Source: Spirochaetia bacterium | GTDB lineage: Bacteria; Spirochaetota; Spirochaetia; UBA9216 | Reading direction: 5' to 3' | Assembly: GCA_963677925.2 (NCBI GenBank) | Contig: CAXXYH010000004.1 | Coordinates: 1,344,001 to 1,408,000, forward strand | Length of the DNA: 64,000 bases | Shown: positions 5,901 to 20,816 of the stretch, piece after piece | How the letters are laid out: each line of letters begins with the position of its first letter | Position numbering within the stretch: position 1 is the stretch's first letter | Notes under the pieces: model-generated | The model's database searches: none | What the model saw: only the letters and a program-made list of their open reading frames with translations | What the model was told of the DNA's origin: nothing | Made by a program: the position numbers and the translations under genes

Positions 5901-6001
5901 TAAGCTGGGAAGATTTTCATCCCTCCGGTGCGGCCTTCACGCCGGAATATGTAACTGAAGCTGCGGGGCTTATGGGTGAAGTTTATCTATATATTGAATA
6001 A
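2924..6001 (+). CDS. Glycoside hydrolase, GH106-like (alpha-L-rhamnosidase-like), cytoplasmic
   Basis: PFWAWN, GGFFIHSREGL, YDEDTWPSG, FFTDEP, LTGH and SEMYG motifs; no signal peptide. Confidence 0.8.
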   Translation: MDTLDEINKRLNGASPKYRSAPFWAWNDSLRPERLTGQIDLMKEQGIGGFFIHSREGLETEYLSDEWMDCTEAALNHAEKSGMEVWIYDEDTWPSGSVGGAVSAADPQHFSAKALTLEISTNKNHSNDADILAVCPAEPYAGPGAENRFLVFRRELSGPSEWYNGSAPSDNMNPEAVRLFLNKTHKAYADCFGEKLGPAIKGFFTDEPNVCDFFANFTAGRPWLPWTDSFTQSFIDARGYDIQGILPLLFFKGEGSEKARYDYWLTLTEIFVTSYTRQLYDWCEEHNVKLTGHMLYENDLGYGVRCNGAVMPHYRYMHAPGIDLLGDQRSEYLTVKQCTSVANQFRRDMVLSEMYGCTGWEFSFSGQKRLGDWQYVMGVNKRCQHLALYSISGCRKRDYPPAFNYQSTFWEYSHLMEDYFARLGVCTTSGEVHRDILMIHPVGTFWMKSGSSADEDLSKVYMNMGWLDEHLMNLNREGDYYNQLTHQLLARQFDFDFGDELIMKDEASVSGSCLQVGSHSYSYVIVPPLQTLMASTIELLKDFLESGGHIFWMTPYPEYVDAEKSGKIAELTGHFRVHPVENFAKLVSVMSSMVQRPVRICDGFGTDCDRLLSMTRTLEKGRAVTIVNTAAEKLDGLILKFADRGRLTRLDLLSGDQSIVPVELDDQGGMNYRLSFEAEETVVFFIDETAEPEVSRPLSLYYRHPHDSVELVYGFPAVSPVRLTSENALTLDICSFRIADEAWSDELPVWQAQKIIRERFGMQAVHYNGAPQRYLWIDDKKEYPLSLRFSFTVDCTPEGEVFAAVEKSAGMKISCNSRACEQTEQWFIDEDFIKHRIPVLVNGENVLEIDLMYCSSTELEDIYITGNFGVSPSRRITGIPSTLERGDWSLQGLKHYPGSCIYQYEIPAAALAEIKASEGSRRLMLHLGEFSGALAVIRIDGGEPIFALRETDIELSGKIAPTAGPVSVEIEIVGSLRNLLGPLHRSADVCSRISWEDFHPSGAAFTPEYVTEAAGLMGEVYLYIE

Positions 6002-6062
6002 AACATAGTGACTAAAAATGCTTATCCCGTTTATAATCTATTTAGATTTTCAGGAGGTTTTT

Positions 6063-6611
6063 ATGGGTACTTTGGAAAATTCAAGCGCTGCAGGGTTCGC
6101 AGACGGGCAATGGGAAAGCATAGTTTCTGTTGTTTCTTCCTCATTCGGTTTCAGTGCTGATGAAAGTAAGAAATTATCAGAAAACAAAACCGCAAAGCTT
6201 ATTGCCGCAATCCCCTTTCTGGCCGGCTGTTCACAGCCCATGAGGACCGCAGTCGCTAATCTCGCTGTATACCATATTGCCAGGGCTGAAGGAAAATCAG
6301 TTTTTGAACATAATGCCTTAGATGATCAGGATGCCTATGCCAGATTATTCAGTATATCGAATTTTCAGGGCGGTGATGAAAAGATCATAAAAAGAGGAAT
6401 GGCCCTGCTTGCACTTCAGAGTCTGCGCAACCATGTGAAGGATTCCGGGACCGATGGAGCAAAGGGTAAGTATAACCCTGTCTCTGAAGGTAAATGGGAT
6501 GCTTCAGCAATTGAAACTCAACTTCTCACTGAAATACAAAATGTAGAAAGTCCTGAAATGGATGAAATTTTGAGTTCAGGAGATGTAGATGGCTTCTGGG
6601 ATAACAACTAA
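6063..6611 (+). CDS. Hypothetical all-alpha protein (182 aa) ending in DGFWDNN
   Basis: CAGGAGG RBS at 6051-6057 favours ATG 6063 over 6018; overlaps the next gene by 23 nt. Confidence 0.75.
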   Translation: MGTLENSSAAGFADGQWESIVSVVSSSFGFSADESKKLSENKTAKLIAAIPFLAGCSQPMRTAVANLAVYHIARAEGKSVFEHNALDDQDAYARLFSISNFQGGDEKIIKRGMALLALQSLRNHVKDSGTDGAKGKYNPVSEGKWDASAIETQLLTEIQNVESPEMDEILSSGDVDGFWDNN

Positions 6612-7437
6612 TAAATTTTCAATTTTTAAAGTACAAAAAAGGATTTCATATATAGTCTCAGCCCTTGGGATGCTTGTTGTGTTTATCAACTTCTTTGATT
6701 TGGTACGGCGATTTCCTGTTATAGATGCACTTTTGTATCCTTCTGTCGGTATTATACTTGCAGTATCAATCGTTATCTTTTTAACCTCACTAAAAGACAG
6801 CAGTTTTTTAAGGTATGTACAGCTGTTTATCTTTTTTCTTGTAGGTGCTATTGCAATTCTTGATGTTTATAATTCCTTTCATGGCCTGGGTCTTGTTATT
6901 CTGACTTTGATAATCGGTTTCCGCTACGGCCTCTTTGAAAAGAAGCCCCTTTTAAAGATATTTCTGTTTATAGGCATAATATTTGTTATTGTAGAAATTG
7001 CCGCAAGTCTTCAGAGCGGGGTAATACGCTGGAATACCGGTCTGGATGCAATAATGTACATCCTTGTCTTTATAGGGGTCCTCTATACCATCTATTCAAA
7101 TGAAATTATCTACTACGTAAAATTAACCACCGAGGCTGAAAATAAACTGAACCGGATAGAAATGGAGCGGACCCGCCTCCAGAACAAGCTTGATGATCTT
7201 GATCTGGTGTACAGACAGCTGACCCAGCCTGCCGATCTTGACTCCATGGGAATTACTCCCAGAGAGATGGAAGTTATTGAGGCTCTGGTTGTTTACCGGG
7301 AACGGGACAGGGCATTGGCTGAAAGGCTCGGGATTTCACCCTATACACTGAAAGAACATATGAAGCATATCAGGGACAAGCTGGGCGTTGACCGCAGGGA
7401 TGAGATTGTCGATATGTGCAGGAATAATTTTTCTTAA
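6589..7437 (+). CDS. Membrane-anchored LuxR/GerE-type transcriptional regulator
   Basis: About 6 hydrophobic helices, a coiled coil, then ITPREMEVI..LAERLGISPYTLKEHMKHIRDKLGV (LuxR HTH); AGGAG RBS. Confidence 0.85.
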   Translation: MASGITTNKFSIFKVQKRISYIVSALGMLVVFINFFDLVRRFPVIDALLYPSVGIILAVSIVIFLTSLKDSSFLRYVQLFIFFLVGAIAILDVYNSFHGLGLVILTLIIGFRYGLFEKKPLLKIFLFIGIIFVIVEIAASLQSGVIRWNTGLDAIMYILVFIGVLYTIYSNEIIYYVKLTTEAENKLNRIEMERTRLQNKLDDLDLVYRQLTQPADLDSMGITPREMEVIEALVVYRERDRALAERLGISPYTLKEHMKHIRDKLGVDRRDEIVDMCRNNFS

Positions 7438-7448
7438 TCCGGGGAACC

Positions 7449-9014
7449 TTATATCTGCAGTTCGCGTTTCATGTACTTTTCATAATACCTTATCATCTGG
7501 CATGAGAATATAATACGCTGACGCAGAATGCCGTCCTCAAGATCAAGTTCAATGAGTTTGTTGATTTTATTAACCTTATTTATGACTGTGTTCCTGTGAG
7601 CATAGGTAACCGCCGCTGTTTTTACCAGGTTCCGGTCATTCAGCAGGTAATAAAACAGGGTGTCCCGAAGGTTAGTGTTGTGATCCCTGTCGTATCTGGT
7701 CAGGTGCACAACCGCCGGATGAATCAGATAGACTATGTCGTTATGGTGATGAAGTTCGTAGAATCGGTGCGCGCACATATCTATTGCGGTATATATCCAG
7801 AACTCCTCGTAAAAGAATATCCTCTCTTTCAGGTTCTCACGAAGTTCGCAGGCCAGCGGAATTGTGTTTTTTGCCAGAATATTGAGTGAGCGCAGGTTTC
7901 CGAAATCCCTGGTTCCGTTGCTTATCCCAATAAAACCGTTGTGCCGCTCAAGAATGGTTTCAAGCCTTTTTGTATCAAGGTTTAAGTTGAATGTCCTCTG
8001 CGGATAGGTTTGAAGAATCACAACCTCATTCTCGTAAACCGTCATATTGCAGTCCGGAAATACTTCTCGCAGCTGTGCAAATATAAAACTTGAGGGCGTC
8101 TGCTTGGTGTTTTTATTCCGGAAAGTTACAACAATCACGCGGACAAAGGTTTCAATTGGAAAGGGCATCAGTCTGAGTCTCTGAATTATCTCGAAGGTCT
8201 GGGTCAGGCTCTGATCCATTATTTCCATCCAGAACTGTTTGAAGTCCTTTGTATAGGTTCCAAGCTTCAGCGAATTGGCCGGAAGGATGTGGCGGTGAAT
8301 CGCCTGTCCGGCACAGACGCATAATCCCCTGCAGTCAATCTCGATCTGTTCAATGCTGCTTTCAATCAAGATAACACTAACAAGCTGATCCTCGTGATAT
8401 ATCCGGTATCCGTAAAGGCGAATACCGCTCTCGGCTACCTTATATTCAACCGGTAAATGCTTCTCTGATCTGTTTATGAAAATAGAGTCTGCAATTTTTT
8501 TTGGGAGAGCGCCTGTCTGGTCCAGATGTTCGGTCAGAAATTTGCTTTCTTCCAGTTTGCAGCTGAGTACGATGCGGTAATTCGGATTCAGCAGAATGAT
8601 CGGGGATTCGGCAAAATCAGATGTCAGATTAAGCATTGCGTATAAGGACTGATCATCAGCTGTAGCATATTTATCAAGCCAAATCTGCCTGAGAGTGAGT
8701 ATTTTGTTGATCATAACAAAAAGATTCGTCCGCGGACAGGAAAGGTAAATAACCGAAATTTCAGGATTCTTGTTCAGGATCACATAATTTGATTTGTGTT
8801 CACATATAAAAATTACAGTACCGGGTTCAATTTCGACATTTTGAAGATTTCTTACTGTTTCTTCGCCAGCGCCTATCCAGGTCTTATCTGCACATAGGGT
8901 TTTCTGATTATCTATAAAATCAACTTCCTGCGGGCATGTTTCCGGCAGGTTCTTTTCATCGGCGTAAACGGTGCACTGCCTCAGATGCTGAAAAAGATAT
9001 GACAGATAAAGCAT
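7449..9014 (-). CDS. PucR/CdaR-family transcriptional regulator
   Basis: C-terminal YDRDHNTNLRDTLFYYL..NLVKTAAVTYAHRNTVINKVNKI helix-turn-helix; divergent from the tct operon. Confidence 0.88.
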   Translation of the reverse strand: MLYLSYLFQHLRQCTVYADEKNLPETCPQEVDFIDNQKTLCADKTWIGAGEETVRNLQNVEIEPGTVIFICEHKSNYVILNKNPEISVIYLSCPRTNLFVMINKILTLRQIWLDKYATADDQSLYAMLNLTSDFAESPIILLNPNYRIVLSCKLEESKFLTEHLDQTGALPKKIADSIFINRSEKHLPVEYKVAESGIRLYGYRIYHEDQLVSVILIESSIEQIEIDCRGLCVCAGQAIHRHILPANSLKLGTYTKDFKQFWMEIMDQSLTQTFEIIQRLRLMPFPIETFVRVIVVTFRNKNTKQTPSSFIFAQLREVFPDCNMTVYENEVVILQTYPQRTFNLNLDTKRLETILERHNGFIGISNGTRDFGNLRSLNILAKNTIPLACELRENLKERIFFYEEFWIYTAIDMCAHRFYELHHHNDIVYLIHPAVVHLTRYDRDHNTNLRDTLFYYLLNDRNLVKTAAVTYAHRNTVINKVNKINKLIELDLEDGILRQRIIFSCQMIRYYEKYMKRELQI

Positions 9015-9110
9015 TGTTTTTGTACTCCTGAATGTATAAAAAACGGAACTTAAGGCTTGATTATATTCTTAATCGCCGGTTTTGTCGAATTAAACCGGTT
9101 GAGCAGGCCG

Positions 9111-9215
9111 ATGTGCGAAAAGTACAAAATATTCTTTCATTAATGTGCTTATATCACAGATTATCAGACGCCTTTAAAAAATGATTTTTAAGGAAAAACT
9201 ATCACGTGTTAGCCT
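9111..9215 (+). promoter_or_regulatory. Tandem TGT-N-ACA operator (probable PucR sites) with extended -10 promoter of the tct operon
   Basis: atgtgcgaaaagtaca (9111) and atgtgcttatatcacaga (9143), 32 bp apart; TGtTAGCCT at 9207; same architecture recurs at 15141-15244. Confidence 0.6.
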
Positions 9216-9257
9216 GAGAATCAAAGGAAAAGAAAATTTTTATTAAAGGAGATCTAC

Positions 9258-9320
9258 ATGAATTGCCCGCCTCGTGCTGCGCTCAGACCCAAACTATTTA
9301 AAACGGAAATTTCAAAATGA
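9258..9320 (+). CDS. Putative 20-aa upstream peptide MNCPPRAALRPKLFKTEISK
   Basis: Strong AAAGGAG RBS; its TGA overlaps the tctB ATG (ATGA). Confidence 0.4.
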   Translation: MNCPPRAALRPKLFKTEISK

Positions 9321-9811
9321 CTGAATATATAAAAAACAAGAAAGATTTTATCCTTGGTGTTGCTACTATTGTGATTGCTGCGTTGATTACTATTCTTTCA
9401 ATGCAGCTCAGGGCTTCCGGATATGACGGTGACCCGGGTCCGAAAATGTTCCCGATGACCGGTGCCGCAATTATGCTTATCTGCGGAATTGCGCTGATTA
9501 TCAAGCCAGGCAAGGTGGCAGGTACCTTCCTTACCCGTAAACAGTGGCTCTCGGCACTTACCATGTTTGGTGTTTATGTCGGAGTTGCTGTTCTGTTTTT
9601 CCTTCTGGGATTTATGCTCTCTCTTCCGATTATTGCCTTCACTCTTACCTTTCTAATGAGCAGGCTGTCGCTGAAGGATCTGGAGCTGAAAAAGCGTATT
9701 CTGAAAAGCCTTATCTATGCGGTAATTGCCAGCGTCTGTGTATACCTTGCATATGTTGTAGGTCTTAACGCAAGGCTTCCTGAAGGTTTGATATTTAAAC
9801 TTTTCTACTGA
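9317..9811 (+). CDS. tctB: Tripartite tricarboxylate transporter TctB
   Basis: GDPGPKMFP motif, 4-5 TM helices, LPEG near C-terminus; adjacent to tctA. Confidence 0.88.
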   Translation: MTEYIKNKKDFILGVATIVIAALITILSMQLRASGYDGDPGPKMFPMTGAAIMLICGIALIIKPGKVAGTFLTRKQWLSALTMFGVYVGVAVLFFLLGFMLSLPIIAFTLTFLMSRLSLKDLELKKRILKSLIYAVIASVCVYLAYVVGLNARLPEGLIFKLFY

Positions 9812-9823
9812 GGATAAAAAATA

Positions 9824-11344
9824 ATGGAAATAATGGATTTAATTTTTGGTGCACTGCATAATATTTTTACGCCTACAGGACTTATATACATAATAGCGGG
9901 AGCCCTGGGCGGAATCGTGCTTGGAGCTATTCCCGGCCTGGGAAGCTCAACGTTGATGGTAATTCTGTTACCTATAGCCTACCGTCTGGATACCAACCTG
10001 GTTCTGGCGCTGTTTATTTCAATTGTAATCGGAGGTATGTCCGGCGGATGTATCGGGTCAATTCTTCTGGGAATTCCTGGTACTGCCTCGTCGCTGGCAA
10101 CGGTCTGGGACGGGTACGAGTTTACCAAACAGGGAGACCCTGTCCGCCCCTTAAGCGCCGCGGTAACAGTTAACTTTCTGGGAACCTTCCCTTCAATCAT
10201 TCTTGCAATCTTTGCCTGCCGCGGTATTGCAATATGGGCTGTTAAACTTGGGCCATGGGAATATGCCGCCTTATGTTTCTGCGCTATTCTGATGGTTGTA
10301 GGACTGTCCAAAGGCAACCTCGTAAAGAGTATGATTGGTGTAGGCCTCGCAATCTTTCTGGCTTCAATCGGTGAAGACCCCATAAATGCAAGCGGACGTT
10401 TCTTGCTTTTCGGACGTCTTGAGTTCCTAAAGGGCCTGAACCTTATCAGCGTAATGCTTGGTCTTTTTGCCGCCAAGATTATTCTTCTTGAATACGCAAG
10501 GGCAAGTAAGACTGAACAGAAAATCGATATCAAGGTTGGCGGGTACAAGTGGCCCGGAAAAGACCTTTCAAAGAATAAACTTCCCGTACTGAGATCCTGG
10601 ATACTCGGTGCTGTTGTAGGATTCCTTCCGGGCCTCGGCGGTCCTGTTGCTTCTGTTATGGGCTATTCCACCGAGAGAATGCTTGCAAAGGACAAGTCCA
10701 AATGGGGCAAGGGTGAGATTGCCGGTGTTCTATGCCCGGAAATCGCCAAGAACTCCGCAATCGGCGGTGCTCTTATTCCGCTTATCGCACTGGGTATTCC
10801 CGGCGACGCGGCCAATGTTCAGTTTATTACTGCCCTGAACGTTAAGGGAATAAACGTAGGTCCCATGTTCATGCGTGAACAGCCGATGATCGTTTACATC
10901 ATTTTTATTGCCGCCCTTATTGCCGCAGTAATCTGTCTTCTGTATGAAACATTCTGTATGAAGACCTTTCCAGCCCTGCTGAAGATTCCCTATCACTACC
11001 TCTATTCAATGGTTGTAATTCTGGCTTTGACCGGAGCTTTCATGACTACAGGAAGCTTCTTCGGTCTGATGGTCGCGCTGTTCTTCTGTCTGCTGGGGAT
11101 CGTTATGGATGTCTTCGGGGTGCCGAGTCTGCCTTTTCTGATGGCATTCATACTCTCGCCCATGCTTGAGCTCAATATCAGAAGGGGTCTGAACTATTCA
11201 GTAAACGGTTTTTCAGAGTTTTTCCGCAGACCTATATCCTGCGTATTTATCATAGTCGGACTTGGTGTTCTTATATACGGTTTCGTGGGACCTGTTATCA
11301 AGAAGGCGATAGCCGAAAGAAAAGCTGCGGCAGCAGTTAAATAA
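9824..11344 (+). CDS. tctA: Tripartite tricarboxylate transporter TctA
   Basis: GAIPGLG, GIPGTASSLATVWDGY, GFLPGLG and LGIPGD motifs; 506-aa membrane protein. Confidence 0.93.
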   Translation: MEIMDLIFGALHNIFTPTGLIYIIAGALGGIVLGAIPGLGSSTLMVILLPIAYRLDTNLVLALFISIVIGGMSGGCIGSILLGIPGTASSLATVWDGYEFTKQGDPVRPLSAAVTVNFLGTFPSIILAIFACRGIAIWAVKLGPWEYAALCFCAILMVVGLSKGNLVKSMIGVGLAIFLASIGEDPINASGRFLLFGRLEFLKGLNLISVMLGLFAAKIILLEYARASKTEQKIDIKVGGYKWPGKDLSKNKLPVLRSWILGAVVGFLPGLGGPVASVMGYSTERMLAKDKSKWGKGEIAGVLCPEIAKNSAIGGALIPLIALGIPGDAANVQFITALNVKGINVGPMFMREQPMIVYIIFIAALIAAVICLLYETFCMKTFPALLKIPYHYLYSMVVILALTGAFMTTGSFFGLMVALFFCLLGIVMDVFGVPSLPFLMAFILSPMLELNIRRGLNYSVNGFSEFFRRPISCVFIIVGLGVLIYGFVGPVIKKAIAERKAAAAVK

Positions 11345-11412
11345 ACTGAAATTTTATAAATCTTCGCAAATAGCAGGGCAACCTGTATTTGAATATAAAT
11401 TTGGAGGAAGAA

Positions 11413-12477
11413 ATGAAAAAGGTAATTGTATTACTCATAGCAGTTGGACTGATCTTCAGTCTCGCCGGTTGTGACAAAACAAAATCCGCAGAAGGTTCAT
11501 CAGCTAAATCTTCTGAATCAGCATCATGGCCCAATGGTGACATTACAATTCTGGCAGGTTATGCTGTCGGTTCAAGGACCGATATCAATATCCATACAGT
11601 AGCAGACTGGATTACAGACAAAACAGGTGCAACAGTTCGAATTGAGAACAACGATACAGGCGGCGGTGCCAACCTTGCCACCCAGCTTGTTCATGCTGAT
11701 CCGGACGGACAGACTCTTATGCTTATCGGTATGAACTGTATTGCAAACTACTACAGCGGTCTGTGGTCAGTTAACCCCTGCGATACAAGCCAGTTTAAGC
11801 TTGTATGCGGAGCTATTCAGCCCTATCCGGATTCAGGATGTATTCTCGTAACTCAGGCAAATCAGCCTTACAGCAACTGGGAAGAACTTGCAGCATATGC
11901 AAAAGCCAACCCCGGAAAGGTAACTGTAGCTTCTATTGCCGGAAAAGTTATGGACATCAAGATGAAGGGTCTGTTTAACGGAACCGGCGTAGCAAAGGAT
12001 ATCAGATGGGTTTCAACTACAAATGCAGATGCCTCTGCCGGCCTTTTAGGCGGAAATATAAATATAATCATTCTTGATGAATGGGCAGCCAGCGGCTACC
12101 TCAAGGATGACAAGGTTAAGGCAATCATCAACTCACGTGATAATGCTGATTATTCCTACTACAAAGACGGTGAAGAAAAGGATATCATCATGAGTGTTCC
12201 TACACTTATCGATGTTTTCGGTGAAGAAAAAGGCAAGGCTCTTGCTATTCCCAACCGCTCAATGTTCGTAGCTCCGGCAGACACTCCTGATGAAATTGTT
12301 GCTCAGATTGCAGAAGTCATTGATGCTCTAGGCGCAGAGACAGAGGGTGATTACTATGAGAGAACCCTTATTAACGGCGGAACTTCAAAGTACTACACAT
12401 GGCCGGGTAAAGAAGTTATGGATGAATGGAACAGACTTGATCCAATAATTAAAGATATTGTTGAAATGGCAAAATAA
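11413..12477 (+). CDS. tctC: TctC/Bug-family substrate-binding lipoprotein (divergent)
   Basis: LAGC lipobox; WPNGDI..GYAVG..D, ENNDTGGG, DGQTL, KANPGK and PADTP Bug-type motifs; GGAGG RBS before ATG 11413. Confidence 0.82.
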   Translation: MKKVIVLLIAVGLIFSLAGCDKTKSAEGSSAKSSESASWPNGDITILAGYAVGSRTDINIHTVADWITDKTGATVRIENNDTGGGANLATQLVHADPDGQTLMLIGMNCIANYYSGLWSVNPCDTSQFKLVCGAIQPYPDSGCILVTQANQPYSNWEELAAYAKANPGKVTVASIAGKVMDIKMKGLFNGTGVAKDIRWVSTTNADASAGLLGGNINIIILDEWAASGYLKDDKVKAIINSRDNADYSYYKDGEEKDIIMSVPTLIDVFGEEKGKALAIPNRSMFVAPADTPDEIVAQIAEVIDALGAETEGDYYERTLINGGTSKYYTWPGKEVMDEWNRLDPIIKDIVEMAK

Positions 12478-12511
12478 TTCCCCGCTTTACATTTAAAAAT
12501 AAAACCAATTG

Positions 12512-12532
12512 GGGAAGCCCTATGGGCTTCCC
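12512..12532 (+). terminator. Stem-loop after tctC
   Basis: gggaagccc-tat-gggcttccc perfect inverted repeat without a strong U-tract. Confidence 0.5.
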
Positions 12533-12568
12533 TGCATTAAAAGAAATAAAAGATTACCAGGAGTCTTT

Positions 12569-13948
12569 ATGAACCTTTCCCATACTCTCGCAGAATTTGT
12601 GGCAGAGACTGTATATGATGATATTGATCCGCGTGTTATAGAGACTCAGAAGAAATCGGTGATGGATGCCGTGGCAATTACACTCGGCGCTTCCGGTCTG
12701 GGGGACGGCTGCAGCCAGATGCTTAAAATTGCGAAGGACCTGTCGGCCGGAGGAAGCGGGGAAGCTGCTGTAATAGGATTCCGGGAACGTCTGCCCGCAG
12801 CCTGGGCAGCGTTTGCCAATGCTTCAATGGCGCACTCTCTGGATTTCGGAGATACTCATTTACGAAGCACAATCCATTCAAACTCATCAAGTTTTCCGGC
12901 AGCTCTGGCCATGTCAGAGAAGATTGGAAACATATCAGGCAAAAAACTTCTTGAAGCCCTGGTTCTCGGAAGCGAGGTCGCAGTCCGCATTGCCCTTGCA
13001 GCCGATGTTAATACACTTGAATACGGATTCTACATCCCCACAATCTATTCATCCTACGGAGCAACCGCGGCTGTTGCAAAGATTATGGGTTTAAGTGCCG
13101 AGCAGATTGTAAGCGCTTTTTCTTTTAATCTCTGTCAAAGCACCTGCAGCAGTGAGCTCGTCAACAATCCGAAAACTGCTCTAAGGTCCATTCGTGAATC
13201 CTTTACTGCCAGAAATGCTATTGTCGCCTGCTGTATGGCCCGGGAGGGGCTTACAGGTTTTGATGCTCCGCTGGAAGGAGAGCTTGGTTTTTATCATGCA
13301 TTTCTTCATGACAACTATACCGCAGAAAAGGCCCTTGACGGTCTGGGTACTCATTACGAAGCAGGTGATCTTACATTCAAGGTATGGCCCTGCTGTTTCG
13401 GAACTCATTCATCAATCACCGCAGCTTCAATTATTGCGAAAGAAGAGAATGTAAAGGCTGAAGACATAAAACATATTCAGGTCTCAATCGGAGCTCAGAA
13501 CAAAATGCTTTTTGAGCCGCTTGATGAAAGACGGAATCCCGAATCATCAATAATCGGGAAGTTCAGTATTCCCTTTACAATGGCTACAGCTCTAATCAAG
13601 GGGAATGTTGATTTAAACAGTTTCAGTAAGGAAAACCTTCAGGATAAGCAAGTCAGAGCTCTGGCTTCACTTATCGATTATACATATATGGAAGACTGGC
13701 AGCGGGGAAAGGAGGCCTGGACTAAGGTTATTATCGAAACCGCCGGAGGTACATTTGAACGCATGGTTACAAATCCATTCGGTACTCCCGAGAATCCGAT
13801 GGATGAAAACATGTTTGATCTGAAGTTTGATTCCTGCGCGCAAAATGCAGTTAACCCTAAGACTCAGCAGGAACTTGACCTGCTGAAATCTTCAATCAGA
13901 ACTCTCGAAGACTGTAAAAACATCTGTGAGTTTACAGAACTTCTCTAA
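12569..13948 (+). CDS. MmgE/PrpD family protein
   Basis: AAFANASMAHSLDFGDTH, FKVWPCC..TH, KFSIPF and GTPENPM motifs; AGGAG RBS before ATG 12569. Confidence 0.92.
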   Translation: MNLSHTLAEFVAETVYDDIDPRVIETQKKSVMDAVAITLGASGLGDGCSQMLKIAKDLSAGGSGEAAVIGFRERLPAAWAAFANASMAHSLDFGDTHLRSTIHSNSSSFPAALAMSEKIGNISGKKLLEALVLGSEVAVRIALAADVNTLEYGFYIPTIYSSYGATAAVAKIMGLSAEQIVSAFSFNLCQSTCSSELVNNPKTALRSIRESFTARNAIVACCMAREGLTGFDAPLEGELGFYHAFLHDNYTAEKALDGLGTHYEAGDLTFKVWPCCFGTHSSITAASIIAKEENVKAEDIKHIQVSIGAQNKMLFEPLDERRNPESSIIGKFSIPFTMATALIKGNVDLNSFSKENLQDKQVRALASLIDYTYMEDWQRGKEAWTKVIIETAGGTFERMVTNPFGTPENPMDENMFDLKFDSCAQNAVNPKTQQELDLLKSSIRTLEDCKNICEFTELL

Positions 13949-13964
13949 TTAAGGATAAAAACAA

Positions 13965-15125
13965 ATGAATAAAGAAAACATAACCATTCTGGGGGTAGGA
14001 GATAATATTCCGGGAATGGGATACTATGATGGTCTGTACGATCATGTTGCACCCATACTTCAGGATGCTGATATTACATTCGGTCAGCTTGAAACCGTTC
14101 TCATCGATGAAAAAATTGATGACCTGTTTCCCTTTGCTGCTTCACAGGCTCGAATGCCCTGTTCTTCAGATCCGAAAGTGGCTCCGGTGCTTAAGGATGC
14201 CGGCTTTGATATAGTATCATTCGCCTCAAATCACTCGCTTGACTACGGCCGTTTTCATTTCCTTAATACAGTTGATTATCTGCGGAATGCAGGTATGGAA
14301 GTTATCGGCGCCGGTGAAAACGAAGAAGATGCCCGACGCTTTTCAGTGATTGAGCGTGACGGAACAAAGATTGCCTTTCTCGGCTACTGCACAATACTGC
14401 CGCAGGATTACTGGGCGCAGGAAGCCCGTCCCGGTGTTAACCCTGCACGGGGGCATACATACTATGAGCAGATAGAGCATGATCAGCCGGGCACACCCTG
14501 CAGAGTGCACAGCTGGGCTCACAAACAGGACAAGGCGCATCTGCTTGATGATATTGCTCAGGCTAAAAAGCAGGCTGATATAGTTGTTGTTTCAATGCAT
14601 TGGGGTATTCATTTTACACAGGCCGAGATTGCCGAGTATCAGAGAGAGTATGCATATGAAGCAATTGATGCCGGTGCGGATCTAATCCTGGGGCACCATG
14701 CTCATATCCTCAAGCCTATCGAGGTATACAAGGGCAAGGTGATCTTCTATTCGCTTGGAAATTTTGCAATGACTGACCCTGATAAAATGGAGCGTGATAA
14801 AAAAACTCTTCGTCAGGATATGCGTACGTCAAAAAAACATCAGGAGATGGCCAGGATACGCAAGGGCTTCGGCACCGGCAACGCGGCCAAAACCTTCCCT
14901 GAAGATTGCTACTATTCAATGATAGCCAAGATTTCAGTTAAAGACAGAAAGATAGATCGCGTCTCCTATATTCCGGTCTACATTCCTGATGATTTCAAGC
15001 CCTACGCGGTGAAGAATGATGATCCGCTATTTAATACTATATTTGATTACATGAAGAATATTGATCAGATGATGAATATAGAAACTGCGTACAGCATAGA
15101 AGGGGATGAGGTTATTATTGATTAG
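13965..15125 (+). CDS. CapA-family metallophosphoesterase-fold hydrolase, cytoplasmic
   Basis: GVGD, GQLE, ASNHSLDYG, SMHWG, GHHAH and YSLGNF motifs; no signal peptide or TM anchor. Confidence 0.88.
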   Translation: MNKENITILGVGDNIPGMGYYDGLYDHVAPILQDADITFGQLETVLIDEKIDDLFPFAASQARMPCSSDPKVAPVLKDAGFDIVSFASNHSLDYGRFHFLNTVDYLRNAGMEVIGAGENEEDARRFSVIERDGTKIAFLGYCTILPQDYWAQEARPGVNPARGHTYYEQIEHDQPGTPCRVHSWAHKQDKAHLLDDIAQAKKQADIVVVSMHWGIHFTQAEIAEYQREYAYEAIDAGADLILGHHAHILKPIEVYKGKVIFYSLGNFAMTDPDKMERDKKTLRQDMRTSKKHQEMARIRKGFGTGNAAKTFPEDCYYSMIAKISVKDRKIDRVSYIPVYIPDDFKPYAVKNDDPLFNTIFDYMKNIDQMMNIETAYSIEGDEVIID

Positions 15126-15140
15126 GACATAAGCTTTTGC

Positions 15141-15244
15141 ATATGCAAATAGCACATTACCCGGAAGACTGTTTGTACGCATGTCACAGACTTTAATTTT
15201 CCGGGGATGATTTGTTTTTATTTAAAAAATAAACATGTTAGGCT
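15141..15244 (+). promoter_or_regulatory. Second copy of the tandem operator and extended -10, upstream of the glycyl radical enzyme
   Basis: atatgcaaatagcaca (15141) and ttgtacgcatgtcacaga (15173), 32 bp apart; TGtTAGGCT at 15236. Confidence 0.6.
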
Positions 15245-15308
15245 TAGCCAACTGATTTATTACATAGAAAATTTAAATCGCAATTAATGCATAAATAAGG
15301 GGTTTACT

Positions 15309-17720
15309 ATGACAGGTCGTGTTGAACGAATGAAAGAAAGTCTGCGGGTCAATAAATATCCGCTGTGTATTCAGCTGTTCAGGCTGGCAAATGAGTCTCT
15401 GGATATGACAGCCGGAGAGCCGATGCTGCTGCGCCGATCAAAACTGCACGCACATATTCTTGATAACATTGATATATTTATTGAAGAGGATGACTTACTC
15501 TGCGGATCCGGAGCAAGCAAGCCCTTCGGTCTTGAGATGCAGTATGAATACGGTGTCTGGACACAGGATGAAGTAGAGTCGCTTAAAAGTGAAATCTATA
15601 CCATCGATCCTGAAGATGAGAAAGAACTTTACGAACTCAACGAACGCTTTGCCGGAAATTCACTCAACAGCAACCTGGTTGAGACAATGGGTAAATCTCT
15701 CGGAATGACAGAACGTCTATGGCCCTTCATGAAATCAGGAACAATACTTCCTCCATGGAAGGACAGAACCGGAGGTTCCGGCGGCGGATTTGCAATGTCA
15801 GGATACGGTCTGGGCCCGGGCTTTTCCCTGGTTGGAATTGACTACTCACGCATCCTTAACGGCGGAGCAAAGTCTGTAATTGAAGAAGCAAAGCAGTGTC
15901 TTCTTGATCTCCGCTATGATTCTTCAGATGCAATCGAAAAGAGAAACTTCTGGGAAGGTATAATCATTGTTTATGAAGCATGGGTCCGCTTTGCAGGCCG
16001 CTATGCTGATCTTGCCGAGAAGATGGCTGAGGCTGAAAGCAATGCCGACAGAAAGGCTGAACTTATTGAGATGGCCAGAATCTGCCGCAAGGTTCCATAT
16101 GAACCTGCTGAAACTTTCCATGAAGCACTGCAGTCTTTCTGGTTTACCTTCCTGCTCGTATGTCCTTCACCTACATCAACAGCCGGCCGTTTTGATCAGT
16201 ACATGTATCCCTTCTATAAGGCTGATATTGACAGCGGCCGAAGTGATGACGACAAGATTCTCGAACTCCTTGAAATCATGCGCTGCAAGGTTATGAAAAT
16301 CAACCGTGTATCAGGAAAGGCAAACAGGGCAAAGAATGCCGGTATGGCAAAGTGGTATAACTGGACAATCGGCGGTCAGAAGGCTGACGGCAGCGATGCT
16401 ACAAATGAGCTGAGCTATCTTCTTCTTGATGCTGCACTTGATACGCATCTTCCCCACCACACCATCACTGTCCGCGTTCATAAGGGAACTCCTGAAAAAC
16501 TGATGGTTAAGGCTCTTGAGTGCGTAAGAAGCGGACTCGGTCTTCCAGCCTTCCTCGGGGATGAATCAAACATCAACTTCTTTACCTCACAGAGCGATAA
16601 AAACAAGCTTTCGATTGAAGTTGCCAGAGATTATGTAGCAACAGGCTGTGTTGATGCCAACGTTCCTTCTGTAACCAGAACTCAGGTAGCCTGCTTTTTT
16701 ATCATACCCCAGGCCATGGATATCTGCATGCATAACGGATACTGCCGCTATACAGAGGAAATGGTCGGTATGCAGACAGGCGATGTCACTGAAATGAAAA
16801 CCTTTGAAGAGTTCAAGGCTGCAATGCATACACAGATACAGCATCTGATGAGCATGGCAAATGAACGAATCAACGTAGAGCTTATAGCAGAACGTGATCT
16901 CTTTCCGGATGTCTTCCGCTCCTCACTTATGAAAGACGGCGTCAAGGTTGGTAAGGATATGTTCAACCGCCGCTTCGATTTTGAAAACGGTGCGGTTCTT
17001 GGTGCAGTCGGCGGTGTAAATACAGGTAACGCCATGTACGCCATCAAGAAGCTTGTCTTCGATGAAAAGAAATACACCATGAAGCAGCTGATGGAAGCCC
17101 TTGATGCAGACTGGGTTGGATATGAGGATATGCAGGCTGATTTTGCTGCAGTGCCCAAATACGGTAACGATGATTCTGAAGTTGATGCAATGGTTGCAGA
17201 AGTTTATCAGCTCCATGCCGATACATGCCACAGTCTGCCATGCGCCTATGGTGATTCGCTCAAGCCGAACGCAATTTCAATTTCTGCACACCAGCCCGGC
17301 GGCGCCTGTACAGGAGCTACTGCAGACGGAAGAAAGGGCGGAGAGATTCTTGCAGATGCTTCACTGTCGCCCGATCATGGACAGGATGTCCACGGTCCTA
17401 CAGCAGTTTTCAAGAGTGCGATGAAAGTCAACCAGGATCCCTACCAGGGAACACTGATGAACATGAAGTTTCATCCAACGAACATGAAAACTGAAAGTGA
17501 TTTAAAGAAACTCGGTGCCTTGATTAAAACCTACCTGACTAACGGCGGTAAGCATATTCAGTTTAATATTGTTAACCGTGAAGATATGGTTGATGCAAAG
17601 GTTCATCCCGAGGATCATCCTGAACTGGTAGTTCGGGTTGCAGGCTACAGTGCCTACTTCACACGCCTTACAGACGGTATTCAGGACGAGGTAATTAACC
17701 GAATGTCCCATACTTTATAA
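15309..17720 (+). CDS. Glycyl radical enzyme (PFL-like superfamily), substrate unknown
   Basis: 803 aa; GRFDQYMYPFY; Cys loop ATGCVD (Cys447); Gly loop VRVAGYSAYF (Gly779); TADGRKGG. Confidence 0.95.
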   Translation: MTGRVERMKESLRVNKYPLCIQLFRLANESLDMTAGEPMLLRRSKLHAHILDNIDIFIEEDDLLCGSGASKPFGLEMQYEYGVWTQDEVESLKSEIYTIDPEDEKELYELNERFAGNSLNSNLVETMGKSLGMTERLWPFMKSGTILPPWKDRTGGSGGGFAMSGYGLGPGFSLVGIDYSRILNGGAKSVIEEAKQCLLDLRYDSSDAIEKRNFWEGIIIVYEAWVRFAGRYADLAEKMAEAESNADRKAELIEMARICRKVPYEPAETFHEALQSFWFTFLLVCPSPTSTAGRFDQYMYPFYKADIDSGRSDDDKILELLEIMRCKVMKINRVSGKANRAKNAGMAKWYNWTIGGQKADGSDATNELSYLLLDAALDTHLPHHTITVRVHKGTPEKLMVKALECVRSGLGLPAFLGDESNINFFTSQSDKNKLSIEVARDYVATGCVDANVPSVTRTQVACFFIIPQAMDICMHNGYCRYTEEMVGMQTGDVTEMKTFEEFKAAMHTQIQHLMSMANERINVELIAERDLFPDVFRSSLMKDGVKVGKDMFNRRFDFENGAVLGAVGGVNTGNAMYAIKKLVFDEKKYTMKQLMEALDADWVGYEDMQADFAAVPKYGNDDSEVDAMVAEVYQLHADTCHSLPCAYGDSLKPNAISISAHQPGGACTGATADGRKGGEILADASLSPDHGQDVHGPTAVFKSAMKVNQDPYQGTLMNMKFHPTNMKTESDLKKLGALIKTYLTNGGKHIQFNIVNREDMVDAKVHPEDHPELVVRVAGYSAYFTRLTDGIQDEVINRMSHTL

Positions 17721-17744
17721 TTTCATTTTGTATTCCTTCACTTT

Positions 17745-17785
17745 GCGCCGGAAGCCCTTCACGGTTTCCGGCGCTTCCTTTTTTT
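17745..17785 (+). terminator. Rho-independent terminator after the GRE gene
   Basis: gcgccggaagcc/ggtttccggcgc stem followed by a T7 tract; lies between convergent genes. Confidence 0.8.
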
Positions 17786-17787
17786 AA

Positions 17788-18540
17788 CTACACCGGAATG
17801 ACAATTGTATGTCCGCAGGCCTCTGTTACAGCAGATTCCATCCCGTAAACCTCTTTAATATTCTCAGGATTTATTATCTCTTTCCCGCCTGCAGCATGTA
17901 CCCGGCCTTCCCTGATAAGCAGAAATTTATCTGAGTAGCGGAGCGCAAGATTAATGTCGTGCATTGTCATTACGGCAGCCATCGGTTTTGAATGGATTAA
18001 TCTGCCGATTCTTGCCATAAGCTGATGCTGGTGACTGATATCAAGACTGCTTGTCGGTTCATCAAAAAGTATCAGTCTGGGTCTCTGGGCAAGAGCCCGC
18101 ACTATCTGGACAAGCTGGAACTCCCCGCCGCTTAACTCGTCTGCATAGCGGAGTGCAAGCTCTTCCAGGCCCATCAGCTTGATAGCTTCTTCAACTATGG
18201 CATGATCTTCTTTTCGGGGAGACCAGTGAAAGTGAGGTTTTCTTCCAAGCAGAACCAAATCATATACCTTCATTCTGACGGGTTCGGAATGCTGGGCTAC
18301 CAGGCCCGTCTTTCTAGCCATTTCTCCATGGCTGATATCACAGCAGTTTTTTCCGTCAATTAAAACTGTGCCCCTGTCAGGAGAAAGTATGAGGTTGAGG
18401 CATTTTAGAAGAGTAGTTTTTCCCGCGCCGTTCGGACCGAGAATTGAAAGTATTTCGCCCTCTTTGAGTTCAAAGCCTGCATCATCAATAACCCGGCGGC
18501 TTTTATAAGCAAAACTCAGACCGTCTACCTTAAGAATCAT
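17788..18540 (-). CDS. ABC transporter ATP-binding protein (FecE/BtuD type)
   Basis: GPNGAGKTT Walker A, LSGGE signature, FDEPT, HDINLA. Confidence 0.93.
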   Translation of the reverse strand: MILKVDGLSFAYKSRRVIDDAGFELKEGEILSILGPNGAGKTTLLKCLNLILSPDRGTVLIDGKNCCDISHGEMARKTGLVAQHSEPVRMKVYDLVLLGRKPHFHWSPRKEDHAIVEEAIKLMGLEELALRYADELSGGEFQLVQIVRALAQRPRLILFDEPTSSLDISHQHQLMARIGRLIHSKPMAAVMTMHDINLALRYSDKFLLIREGRVHAAGGKEIINPENIKEVYGMESAVTEACGHTIVIPV

Positions 18541-19580
18541 CTGTTCCTTCCTGCCACAAGTAAATATATAAAGAGCGGCCCGCCGCAGATTGAGGTAAGG
18601 ATTCCTACGGGAAGAACCATCGGGGTTAAAACTGTTCTTGCCGCTGTGTCGGCTGCAAGAAGTATTATCGCGCCAATCAGCGGAGAGCTGATAAGCAGAA
18701 ACCGGTGGTCTGAGCCAAGCAGCCTTCGGGCAATGTGGGGACCCAGAAGACCGATAAATGCTATGGTTCCGAAAAAGGATACTATGACCGCCGAGATCAT
18801 GGAGGCGGCTGCCATTCCCGCAATACGCAGGGCTCCTGTCTTAATTCCAAGACTTTTAGCCGTATCCTCTCCGGTATCAAGGGCATTGAAATCCCACCGG
18901 AAATAAAAAAATGCAATGAATAGCGGAATGAGTACAGACGCTGTGATTACAAGCACGCGGTTGTTCGCCCTGCCCAGATCTCCGAAAGTCCAGGAAACGA
19001 TGCTTGCCAGCTGTACGCTGTCTGCCAGGTACTGCATTAAAGTCAGTCCGGCGGAAAAAAGAGAACCGATCGCAATTCCGGCAAGGACCATACTTTCAGC
19101 TGAAATCCTGGTGAATACTGTCAGCAGCAGAATGGCTATTGTAGAAACTGCGCAGAAGAAAAACGCCGAAGCGGCGACTGTAAATGAACTGCTGATAATG
19201 ATAGTTGATGTAGTGCCTGTGCCTGCACCGAGAAATACTATTGCAAATGAAGCTCCGAAGGCCGCCGCGCTTGAAAGTCCCAGGGTATATGGTGAGGCCA
19301 GCGGGTTTCGCAGGACCGACTGCATTACAGTTCCTGAGAGTGAAAGACCGGCTCCGACCAGCAGGGCTGCAATAATACGGGGCATTCTTACATCCCAGAC
19401 TATACGGCCTGTGCCTGAATTATCGAAGCGGAAAACATAGGCAAGCACATCTTTCAGAGGAATTCTGATAGTTCCTGCAGATGCTGAAAAAACAACAAGG
19501 GCAGCAAGAATAATTCCTGCTGCCGATATGAAAAGAATGCGTTTACTTTGCTCTTTTTTGTAAGAGCTGTAGATATTCAT
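18537..19580 (-). CDS. FecCD-family ABC permease
   Basis: RMPRI, MQSVLRNPLASPYTLG, AKSLG and GTIAFIGL motifs. Confidence 0.93.
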   Translation of the reverse strand: MNIYSSYKKEQSKRILFISAAGIILAALVVFSASAGTIRIPLKDVLAYVFRFDNSGTGRIVWDVRMPRIIAALLVGAGLSLSGTVMQSVLRNPLASPYTLGLSSAAAFGASFAIVFLGAGTGTTSTIIISSSFTVAASAFFFCAVSTIAILLLTVFTRISAESMVLAGIAIGSLFSAGLTLMQYLADSVQLASIVSWTFGDLGRANNRVLVITASVLIPLFIAFFYFRWDFNALDTGEDTAKSLGIKTGALRIAGMAAASMISAVIVSFFGTIAFIGLLGPHIARRLLGSDHRFLLISSPLIGAIILLAADTAARTVLTPMVLPVGILTSICGGPLFIYLLVAGRNR

Positions 19581-19582
19581 TC

Positions 19583-20728: not shown

Positions 20729-20816
20729 AATAGATACCTCCAAGGTGTTTATGAGATTGAGCTTCTTGTAAAACTCAGTTAGTTTTTTCTGAATTCGGTG
20801 TTATTCAGTACAAGAT

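Follow-up and report, generated by a model that had tools for sequence, protein, structure and literature searches.

What reaction would bring a glycyl radical enzyme (GRE) together with a tricarboxylate transporter, an MmgE/PrpD-family enzyme and a CapA-like protein is the question raised by a locus at positions 7449-17785 of a 64,000-nt stretch of spirochaete DNA (G000:C4:1344001-1408000, hereafter the window), which comes from a genome of 5.04 Mb in four contigs. GREs carry out hard steps of anaerobic gut metabolism, including choline's conversion into trimethylamine, the metabolism of hydroxyproline, the conversion of sulfonates to H2S and the formation of p-cresol and skatole, and with each GRE class that is newly assigned, a pathway that matters to the host has come to light. 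An earlier sequence-only reading of the window had proposed an undescribed anaerobic pathway in which a carboxylate is imported, hydrolysed or isomerised, and then cleaved by radical chemistry. Our analysis indicates that this is a real, ordinary-looking catabolic locus built on a member of a large GRE branch outside the characterised classes, and that the enzyme probably represents a class of its own that acts on an imported carboxylate.

Results

The glycyl radical enzyme falls outside the characterised classes

The GRE is an 803-aa protein encoded at 15309-17720 on the + strand, with matches to the Pfam families PFL-like (PF02901, E 2.5e-145) and Gly_radical (PF01228, E 3.6e-28). It has the barrel and glycine-radical domains, the RVxG[FWY] motif and the Cys-loop cysteine of the pyruvate formate-lyase-like (PFL-like) division of the GRE superfamily. 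Its glycyl motif reads RVAGYSAY, with Gly779 at nt 17643-17645, and the predicted thiyl residue, Cys447 (16647-16649), lies in TGC(447)VD and aligns with Cys433 of glycerol dehydratase. Two residues after this cysteine stands Asp449 (16653-16655), at a position where glycerol dehydratase, propanediol dehydratase, CutC and the enzyme of PDB entry 9rco have Glu; in the HMMER alignment to glycerol dehydratase, E435 corresponds to Asp449, and H164, by which the departing hydroxyl is protonated, to Leu174. The window GRE therefore has Cys-Val-Asp in place of the Cys-x-Glu of the GRE 1,2-eliminases and isomerases, all of which keep CXE according to the available part of a GRE review of June 2026 (PMC13450708).

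The comparison with known families gave the same picture. Every NCBIfam model matched by the GRE scored far below its cut-off, for example CutC (434/1050), HypD (400/1100), IAD (433/1100), HpsG (487/1000) and the HPAD large subunit (346/1150), and the broad PFL2-3 subfamily model was likewise missed (514 against 678). An AlphaFold2 model built on 38 clade members (pLDDT 87.7, pTM 0.90) matched all solved GREs in Foldseek at 22-32% identity, the nearest being the diol dehydratases 1r8w, 5i2g and 9rco with TM-scores of 0.91-0.92 and 30-32% identity (top match 1r8w, 0.92 and 32%). CutC followed at 29-30%, HypD at 26% and BSS at 25-26%. With His164 replaced by Leu174, these identities and a PFL2-3 score under the cut-off, the enzyme is not a glycerol or propanediol dehydratase of the known type, and the IAD and HPAD scores place it outside the arylacetate decarboxylases (HPAD, IAD, PAD, AAD), of which 7e7l (AAD) ranked 39th in Foldseek at 31% identity and HPAD (2y8n) 50th at 22%. 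No ORF of the HPAD small-subunit type adjoins the GRE among the called genes. The alpha subunits of the X-succinate synthases BSS and MASS were 25-27% identical, and for these enzymes it should be noted that the lists of open reading frames (ORFs) start at 80-90 aa and no search was aimed at small subunits. In line with the undescribed pathway proposed in the sequence-only reading, the GRE clusters at high identity with none of the characterised classes by NCBIfam, PDB sequence and Foldseek comparison.

The GRE classes covered in the accessible part of PMC13450708 are the formate lyases, four arylacetate decarboxylases, X-succinate synthases, C-O, C-N and C-S eliminases, three isomerases and the aminoacyl radical enzymes. 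No GRE listed there acts on an aliphatic polycarboxylate other than fumarate, and the terms 'CXD', 'dicarboxylate', 'tricarboxylate' and 'aspartate' have zero occurrences in the main text of the review as far as it was available. Open-access papers and bioRxiv (supplements excluded) yielded no paper on a Cys-x-Asp GRE or on a GRE with such neighbours, and none that names the accessions of three orthologs.

A large Cys-x-Asp clade

Among 93 aligned relatives, 90 have Cys-x-Asp; the set takes in 73 orthologs with identities of 64-100%, groups of paralogs near 50-58% and near 43%, paralogs from the same genome and an outgroup, and the three exceptions are distant Cys-x-Glu sequences of the outgroup. 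The 38 clade representatives compared are invariant at Cys447, Asp449 and Arg457 and over the greater part of a Gly-rich loop (G158, G160, G165, G167-G169); this loop, residues 158-171, is missing from the outgroup and is the only long low-confidence segment of the GRE model. The clade is large, with 5267 proteins at E <= 1e-100 among 7999 candidates scored, and none of the best 120 falls below 79% identity. Apart from one mis-transferred 'HPAD large subunit', they go under generic names such as 'hypothetical protein' and 'pyruvate formate lyase family protein'.

The enzyme falls into a large group of orthologs, 70-88% identical, from Clostridia of the gut and rumen. Orthologs were found mainly in Lachnospiraceae, Oscillospiraceae and Intestinimonas from the rumen and from human, mouse, chicken and horse gut, and also in Mediterraneibacter gnavus, Murimonas, Youngiibacter and Fusibacter. 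In the family to which genome G061 belongs, at least 5 of 301 genomes (G061 included, at most three candidates scored per genome) have a clade member at E <= 1e-150. The nearest relatives of the window GRE are those of locus L040 (Spirochaetia, 99% identity) and locus L074 (Spirochaetales, 88%). In a FastTree phylogeny these three spirochaete enzymes nest inside sequences from metagenome-assembled genomes (MAGs) of Clostridia, which suggests that the GRE was acquired horizontally by this spirochaete lineage.

A long antisense frame (median 843 aa) spans the whole GRE gene in 19 of 80 related loci, for example at L118:9923-12454 (- strand), where it outranked the true gene in longest-ORF calling; the window itself has no such frame. 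It is probably an artefact of codon bias, and could mislead gene callers.

Gene neighbourhoods of the related enzymes

The neighbourhood set consisted of the best 80 of 323 related loci, in which ORFs of at least 90 aa were considered and many contigs are short; 919 neighbour products were clustered, and recurrent clusters were named by Pfam and NCBIfam. Over these 80 loci, the most frequent neighbours were a GRE activase (40), a PucR regulator (38), a MatC_N/CitMHS dicarboxylate carrier (25) and an Opp-type ATP-binding cassette (ABC) system (16), followed by CapA-like (14) and PrpD-like proteins (10), a CocE/S15 hydrolase with an esterase domain (10), a URO-D-like protein (7), Tct and CoA transferase (6 each), enoate reductase (5), and acyl-CoA dehydrogenase, 2-hydroxyacyl-CoA dehydratase and RidA (4 each). 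When only the 36 loci flanked by 5 kb or more on either side were considered, the counts were PucR 25, activase 24, MatC 16, Opp 11, CapA 10, PrpD 7 and Tct 4; a MatC or Tct system was present in 20 of them, and MatC, Tct or Opp in 24. The conserved core is GRE, activase, PucR and a MatC/CitMHS carrier.

Several members of the clade may stand side by side, and 9 of the 80 loci hold two or three Cys-x-Asp paralogs, which sometimes share one activase and one carrier (L061, L081, L094, L103). These four loci have three paralogs each, from subgroups about 75-83%, 47-52% and 42-44% identical to the window GRE, with at most one activase; a MatC carrier occurs in L081, L094 and L103, remnants of Tct occur in L061, and L094 and L103 have URO-D-like proteins in addition. 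The URO-D-like neighbour had no PDB relative by sequence, giving weak MtaA-type matches only. The source genome of the window encodes seven PFL-like GREs, five of them Cys-x-Asp enzymes, and all five adjoin an importer of carboxylates or peptides: TctBAC at the locus studied here, and elsewhere GRE-TctBAC-MerR, MerR-activase-GRE-MatC, GRE-MatC, and a C69 dipeptidase with an Opp system. The common denominator of these contexts is the import of a (poly)carboxylate or of a peptide- or ester-like conjugate.

The neighbours did not lead to a single substrate, an idea that we abandoned as their contexts diverge into hydrolysis and reduction of hydroxycinnamate esters, 2-hydroxyacyl-CoA dehydration, peptide uptake and imine hydrolysis. 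Because a CocE-like hydrolase/esterase, an enoate reductase and an acyl-CoA reductase set lie near some orthologs, there is a hint, to be taken as a lead only, that several Clostridia free the acid from hydroxycinnamoyl esters of plants or from peptide-like conjugates. The latter set (acyl-CoA reductase, EtfAB with a ferredoxin domain, CoA transferase, AMP-ligase and PadR) appears to resemble the genes of caffeate respiration.

Linkage of the transporter, PrpD-like and CapA-like genes to the GRE was found in the neighbourhood analysis, in line with what the sequence-only reading expected of a functional unit, and it recurs in unrelated lineages and in several gene orders; this needs the qualification that the association is that of a minority accessory, since PrpD or CapA accompanies the GRE in 17 of 73 ortholog rows and Tct in 6 of the 80 loci. 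With at least 11 state changes on the ortholog tree, PrpD and CapA are not one inherited block. The order TctBAC-PrpD-CapA-GRE is shared by the window and L040. Two Blautia MAGs (L101/L102) have GRE-PrpD-CapA-TctBAC, contiguous and on the same strand; in L091, GRE-TctBAC-CapA lies between an activase and a PrpD gene, both on the opposite strand; and GRE-PrpD-MatC occurs with CapA nearby in L087, L088 and L090 and with an activase in L117. Further PrpD/CapA combinations are found in L041, L046, L048, L081 and L106-L109. PrpD and CapA occur together in 8 of the 80 loci, PrpD alone in 2, CapA alone in 6 and neither in 64 (Fisher p 4e-6, a value that is overstated as relatives are not independent). 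Every PrpD homologue found at E <= 1e-30 sits at the GRE locus in four of the five carrier genomes searched. A close PrpD ortholog (E <= 1e-80) was found in 0 of 399 other genomes sampled from the class of G061; this sample for the reverse neighbourhood comprised 400 genomes, one unscored, and as only G061 carries the ortholog, it is uninformative on that neighbourhood. A metagenome scan for the PrpD ortholog gave four loci. We take the TctBAC-PrpD-CapA cassette for an optional side branch that feeds the GRE, and regard a functional tie between them as probable.

The PrpD-like and CapA-like proteins

The enzyme encoded at 12509-13948 (+ strand, likely start ATG at 12569) forms a distinct subfamily of MmgE/PrpD proteins, with both the N and C domains (PF03972, E 1.2e-57; PF19305, E 4.7e-29) and the conserved carboxylate-binding His, Asp and Lys residues of the family. 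Its matches in the PDB were iminodisuccinate (IDS) epimerase (7e-40), cis-aconitate decarboxylase (2e-24) and PrpD (1e-7), and the NCBIfam PrpD equivalogs gave 38-50 bits against cut-offs of 458-950. Using the IDS epimerase residues listed in PMC12290011, we found that the protein shares with IDS epimerase (2HP0) and the (S)-(R)-methylsuccinate isomerase the two-domain fold and the carboxylate-binding and catalytic residues H85, D88, H99 and K266, but differs from IDS epimerase in having Leu, Tyr and Arg at Y145, H150 and K198, and in adjoining a GRE rather than a C-N lyase or acyl-CoA dehydrogenase. With these equivalog scores and the replacement of Tyr145 and His150, it is assigned to the family and to none of PrpD, IDS epimerase or cis-aconitate decarboxylase specifically. 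According to the accessible part of PMC12290011, a 2025 study, all characterised MmgE/PrpD substrates have a succinate backbone substituted at C2/C3 and react by an enolate mechanism, a further member of the family is a methylsuccinate racemase, and itaconate and methylsuccinate are abundant in human faeces, with no itaconate fermenter known.

The CapA/PGA_cap-like protein (13965-15125, + strand; PF09587, E 6.4e-68) has a metallophosphoesterase fold with the metal-binding and His/Asp residues of that type. It differs from the capsule proteins CapA/PgsA in that it has no N-terminal membrane segment and its neighbours are TctC, PrpD and the GRE instead of capB/capC (pgsB/pgsC). The prediction that it is cytoplasmic was confirmed, as neither a signal peptide nor an N-terminal membrane segment was found. 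Its sole PDB relative is the epimerase MslH (3e-22), which acts on the C-terminal Trp of a lasso peptide (8GQ9) and is likewise a soluble protein with a PGA_cap domain. The motifs SNH..D, HWG.H and GHHAH align with N87/H88/D91, H259 and H295 of MslH, H261 is not aligned, and GVGD and GQLE motifs are found at the N terminus. The window protein scores 97 with the NCBIfam model of MslH, whose cut-off is 700, and no lasso-peptide genes are present. In the available part of PMC10406935, MslH is described as a Ca-dependent epimerase that deprotonates the carbon next to the free C-terminal carboxylate with the dyads His88/Asp91 and His295/Asp11. Presumably the substrate of the CapA-like protein is a small acid or a short peptide-like compound. 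A preprint on a metal-dependent bile salt hydrolase was followed up as a lead for this protein and set aside, as it concerns the amidohydrolase family PF07969.

These comparisons change the role that was first assigned to the CapA-like protein. It had been read as a hydrolase, and hydrolysis remains one option; yet its only solved relative is an epimerase whose catalytic His and Asp residues it mostly keeps. Because the nearest relatives of the two accessory enzymes are MslH and IDS epimerase, isomerisation or epimerisation is at least as likely as hydrolysis, and because proton removal from the carbon beside a carboxylate is what the known members of both families have in common, the substrate is suggested to have stereocentres at the alpha positions of its carboxylates and need not be hydrolysed.

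Activase and control regions

Pfam and ORF calls placed no GRE activase at the locus. The genome, in which a [4Fe-4S]/SAM activase of the PFLE_PFLC family is present, has two canonical activases above the family cut-off for its seven GREs, so that one activase would have to serve several GREs, or other radical S-adenosylmethionine (SAM) proteins would do so. One of the two, at G000:C3:709289-710227, is 75% identical to the activase beside the L074 ortholog, and is the likely candidate partner of the window GRE; the other is at most 43% identical to any of the 40 neighbouring activases in the related loci.

The sequence-only reading had also claimed that the transporter and GRE promoters carry the same operator pair and are co-regulated through it, and here our results do not follow it. 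The divergent pucR-tctB control region (9015-9316) and the capA-GRE spacer (15126-15308) do both hold ATrTCACAGA with TGTTAGsCTkAG about 54 nt later. The best local alignment of the two spacers scored 21 against 20.6 +/- 2.6 (maximum 28) in 200 shuffles, their best collinear segment pair was equalled by 76 of 300 shuffles, and, in the regions upstream of the GRE gene, the word pair was confined to the window and the 99% identical L040 (0 of 70 other orthologs). A three-way test that added the PucR-GRE spacer of the 88% ortholog L074 was also at chance level (10 of 60 shuffles). The four tests thus give support neither to a shared operator nor to co-regulation by it, and could not define an operator for the regulator, a PucR/CdaR-family protein (7449-9014, - strand) with a C-terminal HTH_30 domain (E 3e-10), whose NCBIfam matches to AdeR, PmfR and CdaR were weak and all well below cut-off.

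The best sigma-70-like site, TCGACA-17-TATAAT at 9088-9060 on the - strand (11/12), would serve pucR. The consensus scan returned no promoter-like site on the + strand of either spacer, and a promoter of the GRE's own therefore lacks support. The capA-GRE spacer contains a stem-loop at 15160-15205 followed by a U-rich stretch; its RNA fold of -43.4 kcal/mol compares with -29.7 +/- 3.6 for shuffled sequences (z -3.8, 0 of 200 shuffles folding as well). Rfam gave no match to a riboswitch or known RNA at E <= 0.1 across 7000-18500. This hairpin may serve in attenuation, terminate transcription in part, or stabilise the RNA. From the gene layout, co-regulation of tctBAC-prpD-capA and the GRE is plausible.

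Locus layout and surrounding genes

Gene identities were assigned from the ORF listing and Pfam with NCBIfam cut-off checks, and every gene of the set given in the sequence-only reading (PucR, TctBAC, MmgE/PrpD, CapA-like, GRE) was recovered. Divergent from pucR, six genes from tctB to the GRE follow on the + strand with gaps of 12, 44, 31, 16 and 183 nt. The first three encode a complete tripartite tricarboxylate transporter (TTT): the small membrane subunit TctB (9317-9811; PF07331, E 1.5e-14), the large membrane subunit TctA (9824-11344; PF01970, E 1.8e-108) and the TctC/Bug-type solute-binding lipoprotein (11389-12477, likely start ATG at 11413; PF03401, E 3.9e-17). TctC has the lipobox LAGC and matched terephthalate-, Asp- and other carboxylate-binding TctC proteins of the PDB weakly (best 4.6e-11). 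That the GRE gene is closed by its own terminator was also confirmed, with a strong intrinsic terminator at 17745-17785 (+ strand) made of a 12-bp stem (17745-17774, nine G-C pairs, loop of 6) and a T-run. It also faces the convergent ABC gene, which ends at 17788.

That gene belongs to a group on the - strand (17788-21310) that encodes an ABC ATPase, a FecCD permease, a Peripla_BP_2 binding protein and a NikR-like regulator (RHH and NikR_C domains), an iron/cobalamin-type metal-chelate importer apparently unrelated to the GRE locus. On the other side, a second Cys-x-Asp GRE, 43-44% identical to the first, lies 2 kb upstream of the window (G000:C4:1339526-1341922), together with genes for an AraC regulator, a C69 dipeptidase and an Opp-type ABC system. 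The DNA between it and the locus studied here holds a DHDPS-family aldolase/dehydratase-like gene and encodes a TRAP transporter (window 7-2914) and a GH106-like protein (2924-6001). The stretch of about 30 kb around both GREs looks like an island for acidic compounds derived from plants or peptides. A 197-aa ORF at 6018-6611 and a 197-aa ORF beside a second PrpD-like gene of this genome were compared and are unrelated.

Discussion

The GRE clusters with no characterised class, and PrpD, CapA and Tct genes are indeed linked to its homologues, so that this locus is best read as belonging to an undescribed anaerobic pathway for a carboxylate that is imported. Of the pathway proposed by the sequence-only reading, radical cleavage is plausible, be it by elimination, decarboxylation or C-C cleavage. 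Our proposal is that these genes together serve the catabolism of an organic polycarboxylate taken up by the cell. TctBAC would import a di- or tricarboxylate with a substituted succinate (C4 1,4-dicarboxylate) backbone, and the PrpD-like and CapA-like enzymes would abstract a proton alpha to a carboxylate by enolate chemistry, giving through epimerisation, isomerisation or dehydration the stereo- or regio-isomer that the GRE accepts. The GRE would be activated in trans by the activase at G000:C3:709289-710227, after which its thiyl radical would take a hydrogen from a hydroxyl- or amino-bearing carbon with Asp449 as the base, as Glu is in the known eliminases, and the vicinal OH or NH3+ would be expelled to leave a 2-oxo-dicarboxylate for central metabolism. 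In most other genomes, a MatC-type carrier may bring the GRE substrate directly, the PrpD/CapA(/Tct) genes being an optional feeder.

We prefer an elimination for four reasons: the nearest folds are diol dehydratases; an invariant acidic residue occupies the position of the base; minimal loci of regulator, carrier, GRE and activase are easiest to explain if the product is already a central metabolite; and in some cases several paralogs share a locus, in the manner of the stereoisomer-specific hydroxyproline enzymes. Taken as a whole, with 1,2-elimination and Asp as base, we give this reading a probability of about 0.4. The substrates that the context brings to mind, namely tartrate isomers, aldarates, hydroxycitrate- or isocitrate-type acids, 3-hydroxyaspartate and itaconate or methylsuccinate, are guesses, each of them improbable individually.

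A number of points weigh against this proposal. All of the chemistry is read from the families of the proteins and from their gene context. The GRE does not conserve the polar residues with which glycerol dehydratase binds its glycerol, and loop 158-171 is modelled at pLDDT < 50, so that the active site cannot be read from the model. Asp449 alone is no proof of eliminase chemistry, because GRE decarboxylases vary at the residue after Cys-x (E, E and Q in the available part of PMC13450708), and the arylacetate decarboxylase 7e7l has CVL at the Cys-loop in the alignment with the GRE. The loss of the aligned Tyr145 and His150 makes the reaction type of the PrpD-like enzyme uncertain. The CocE-like hydrolase/esterase, enoate reductase and car-like acyl-CoA reductase set near orthologs fit a hydroxy-diacid only loosely, as do the 2-hydroxyacyl-CoA dehydratase, RidA and URO-D-like neighbours. 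Of the 80 related loci, many of them on short contigs, 70 have no PrpD and 66 no CapA, and L074, the nearest ortholog outside the genus at 88% identity, has the arrangement PucR-GRE-MatC-activase without either. The 183-nt spacer with its terminator-like hairpin makes co-transcription from tctB to the GRE uncertain. A TctBAC-PrpD-CapA cassette 71-79% identical to that of the window is found on the metagenome contig L125 (6712-12595), with no Cys-x-Asp ortholog within 10 kb downstream; on the upstream side, 9 kb away, there is only the C-terminal end of a distant GRE. Finally, this genome has a second PrpD-like gene (35% identity; L142:8019-9392 = G000:C4:1317019-1318392) and a second CapA-like gene (42% identity; L143:7908-9032 = G000:C4:1296407-1297531), the latter beside another Opp system, neither with a GRE nearby.

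As to the surroundings of these copies, the L125 cassette is flanked by two PucR genes, a MatC gene, an aldo/keto reductase, a short-chain dehydrogenase/reductase and three URO-D-like genes, and the second PrpD-like gene adjoins an Opp system, an S15/CocE-like hydrolase and a PHB-depolymerase-like esterase; GH3 is also among the neighbours of the PrpD-like and CapA-like paralogs. Because the paralogs adjoin Opp importers and hydrolases, both families appear to be tied repeatedly to peptide- or ester-like uptake in this genome.

The alternative that survives best is that the GRE uses its radical to decarboxylate an aliphatic or vinylogous dicarboxylate, such as itaconate, glutaconate, an aconitate-derived or a malonate-type acid. 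Carrier and GRE would then form a precursor/product exchange module like those of other systems driven by decarboxylation, for which the commonest context, a minimal set of regulator, GRE and MatC-type carrier with or without an activase, would be well suited, and an imported tricarboxylate would be turned by the PrpD-like and CapA-like enzymes into the acid that is decarboxylated. The arylacetate decarboxylase 7e7l is the second-best PDB sequence match (2e-121) and IAD is among the best NCBIfam matches; the known GRE decarboxylases are not bound to Cys-x-Glu, as the accessible part of PMC13450708 and the CVL of 7e7l indicate; the PrpD-like enzyme does match cis-aconitate decarboxylases; reduction of an unsaturated product might fall to the enoate reductase and acryloyl-CoA-reductase-like sets that lie beside some orthologs; and the faecal abundance of itaconate and methylsuccinate, with no itaconate fermenter known in the available part of PMC12290011, would fit such a pathway. 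Nevertheless, the diol dehydratases are closer than the decarboxylases both by fold and by sequence, the invariant acidic residue two after the cysteine is the hallmark of eliminases and isomerases, and the PrpD-like enzyme is far closer to IDS epimerase than to cis-aconitate decarboxylase. In addition, oxidation of an aliphatic carboxylate by a thiyl radical gives a poorly stabilised radical. We therefore regard decarboxylation as unlikely, if still worth keeping in mind.

Less probable still is an accidental juxtaposition, in which TctBAC-PrpD-CapA is a self-sufficient uptake and isomerisation operon and the GRE a separate unit with an unrelated substrate. The 183-nt spacer with its hairpin, the L125 cassette with no adjacent Cys-x-Asp GRE, the lack of PrpD, CapA and Tct near most orthologs and the GRE-free paralogs near Opp importers and hydrolases would all agree with it. 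It is opposed by the recurrence of the adjacency in distant lineages and different gene orders, including the contiguous GRE-PrpD-CapA-TctBAC and GRE-PrpD-MatC, by the exclusive placement of PrpD homologues at the GRE locus in four of five carrier genomes, and by the rarity of the close PrpD ortholog in the sampled class.

We also considered C-C bond chemistry on a succinate backbone, either like that of the X-succinate synthases (fumarate addition or its reverse) or a B12-independent carbon-skeleton rearrangement of a branched dicarboxylate of the methylsuccinate or 2-methyleneglutarate type, with the PrpD-like enzyme as a racemase that supplies the right enantiomer. The MmgE/PrpD enzymes do act on substituted succinates, one of them as a methylsuccinate racemase, and the X-succinate synthases bind fumarate or succinate moieties, according to the parts of PMC12290011 and PMC13450708 that were available. 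The window GRE has the invariant Arg457 ten residues after Cys447. In BSS, Arg508, 15 residues after Cys493, binds fumarate. BSS and MASS are, however, among the more distant structures (25-27% identity, TM-scores of 0.86-0.88, ranks 30-47), the neighbours called, all of them ORFs of 90 aa or more, include no small accessory-subunit genes, and the reverse hydroalkylation should be thermodynamically unfavourable, which makes this chemistry very unlikely. That the enzyme is an ordinary B12-independent glycerol or 1,2-propanediol dehydratase beside acid-uptake genes by chance can practically be dismissed, for these enzymes are its best PDB and Foldseek matches at only 30-32% identity, it has Asp for E435 and Leu for H164 and stays under the PFL2-3 cut-off, and the locus has no microcompartment, aldehyde dehydrogenase or adjacent activase genes.

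Glycerol dehydratase (C. butyricum, 1R8W) and the propanediol dehydratases (5I2A/5I2G, 9RCO) have in common with the window GRE the ten-stranded fold, RVxGY, the thiyl Cys and an acidic residue at Cys+2, but the window GRE differs in having Asp for Glu, Leu for His164, the Gly-rich loop 158-171 and the invariant Arg457, and it lies beside a carboxylate importer, not among microcompartment or aldehyde-processing genes, with its activase not adjacent. Fold and radical machinery are likewise shared with CutC, HypD, HpyG/HpzG, IslA/IseG, HpsG/HpfG, HplG and YbiW/PflD. As far as PMC13450708 was available, such eliminases and isomerases serve substrate-specific pathways with a dedicated importer, with stereoisomer-specific paralogs in the case of hydroxyproline, to which the up to three Cys-x-Asp paralogs per locus can be likened; yet those enzymes keep Cys-x-Glu, and the window GRE is 26-30% identical to them with equivalog scores less than half of the cut-offs. 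By analogy, the locus would work like other substrate-specific GRE modules made up of importer, regulator, GRE, activase and helper isomerases.

A broader reading, which we put forward only tentatively, is that the Cys-x-Asp GREs are a new functional class whose radical chemistry is directed at aliphatic di- and tricarboxylic acids of the hydroxy, amino or branched kind, with paralogs specialised by acid or stereoisomer and fed by PrpD-like and CapA-like epimerases. This could cover radical dehydration or deamination of tartrate-, aldarate- or hydroxyaspartate-type acids, and even a B12-independent rearrangement or a decarboxylation. The substrate search is narrowed to a short list of purchasable acids by the transporter types, the succinate-backbone rule of the PrpD family and the epimerase-like CapA protein, and with a candidate activase named, the hurdle that reconstitution usually meets is taken away. 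If radical elimination with an Asp base is true, the eliminase paradigm would be extended, and if decarboxylation or rearrangement is true, a new reaction type would be added to the superfamily. The clade occurs in gut bacteria of humans, mice, chickens and ruminants, and a new class would mean an unseen route by which Clostridia of the gut and rumen, Mediterraneibacter gnavus included, and some spirochaetes may ferment polycarboxylates derived from plants or from the host.

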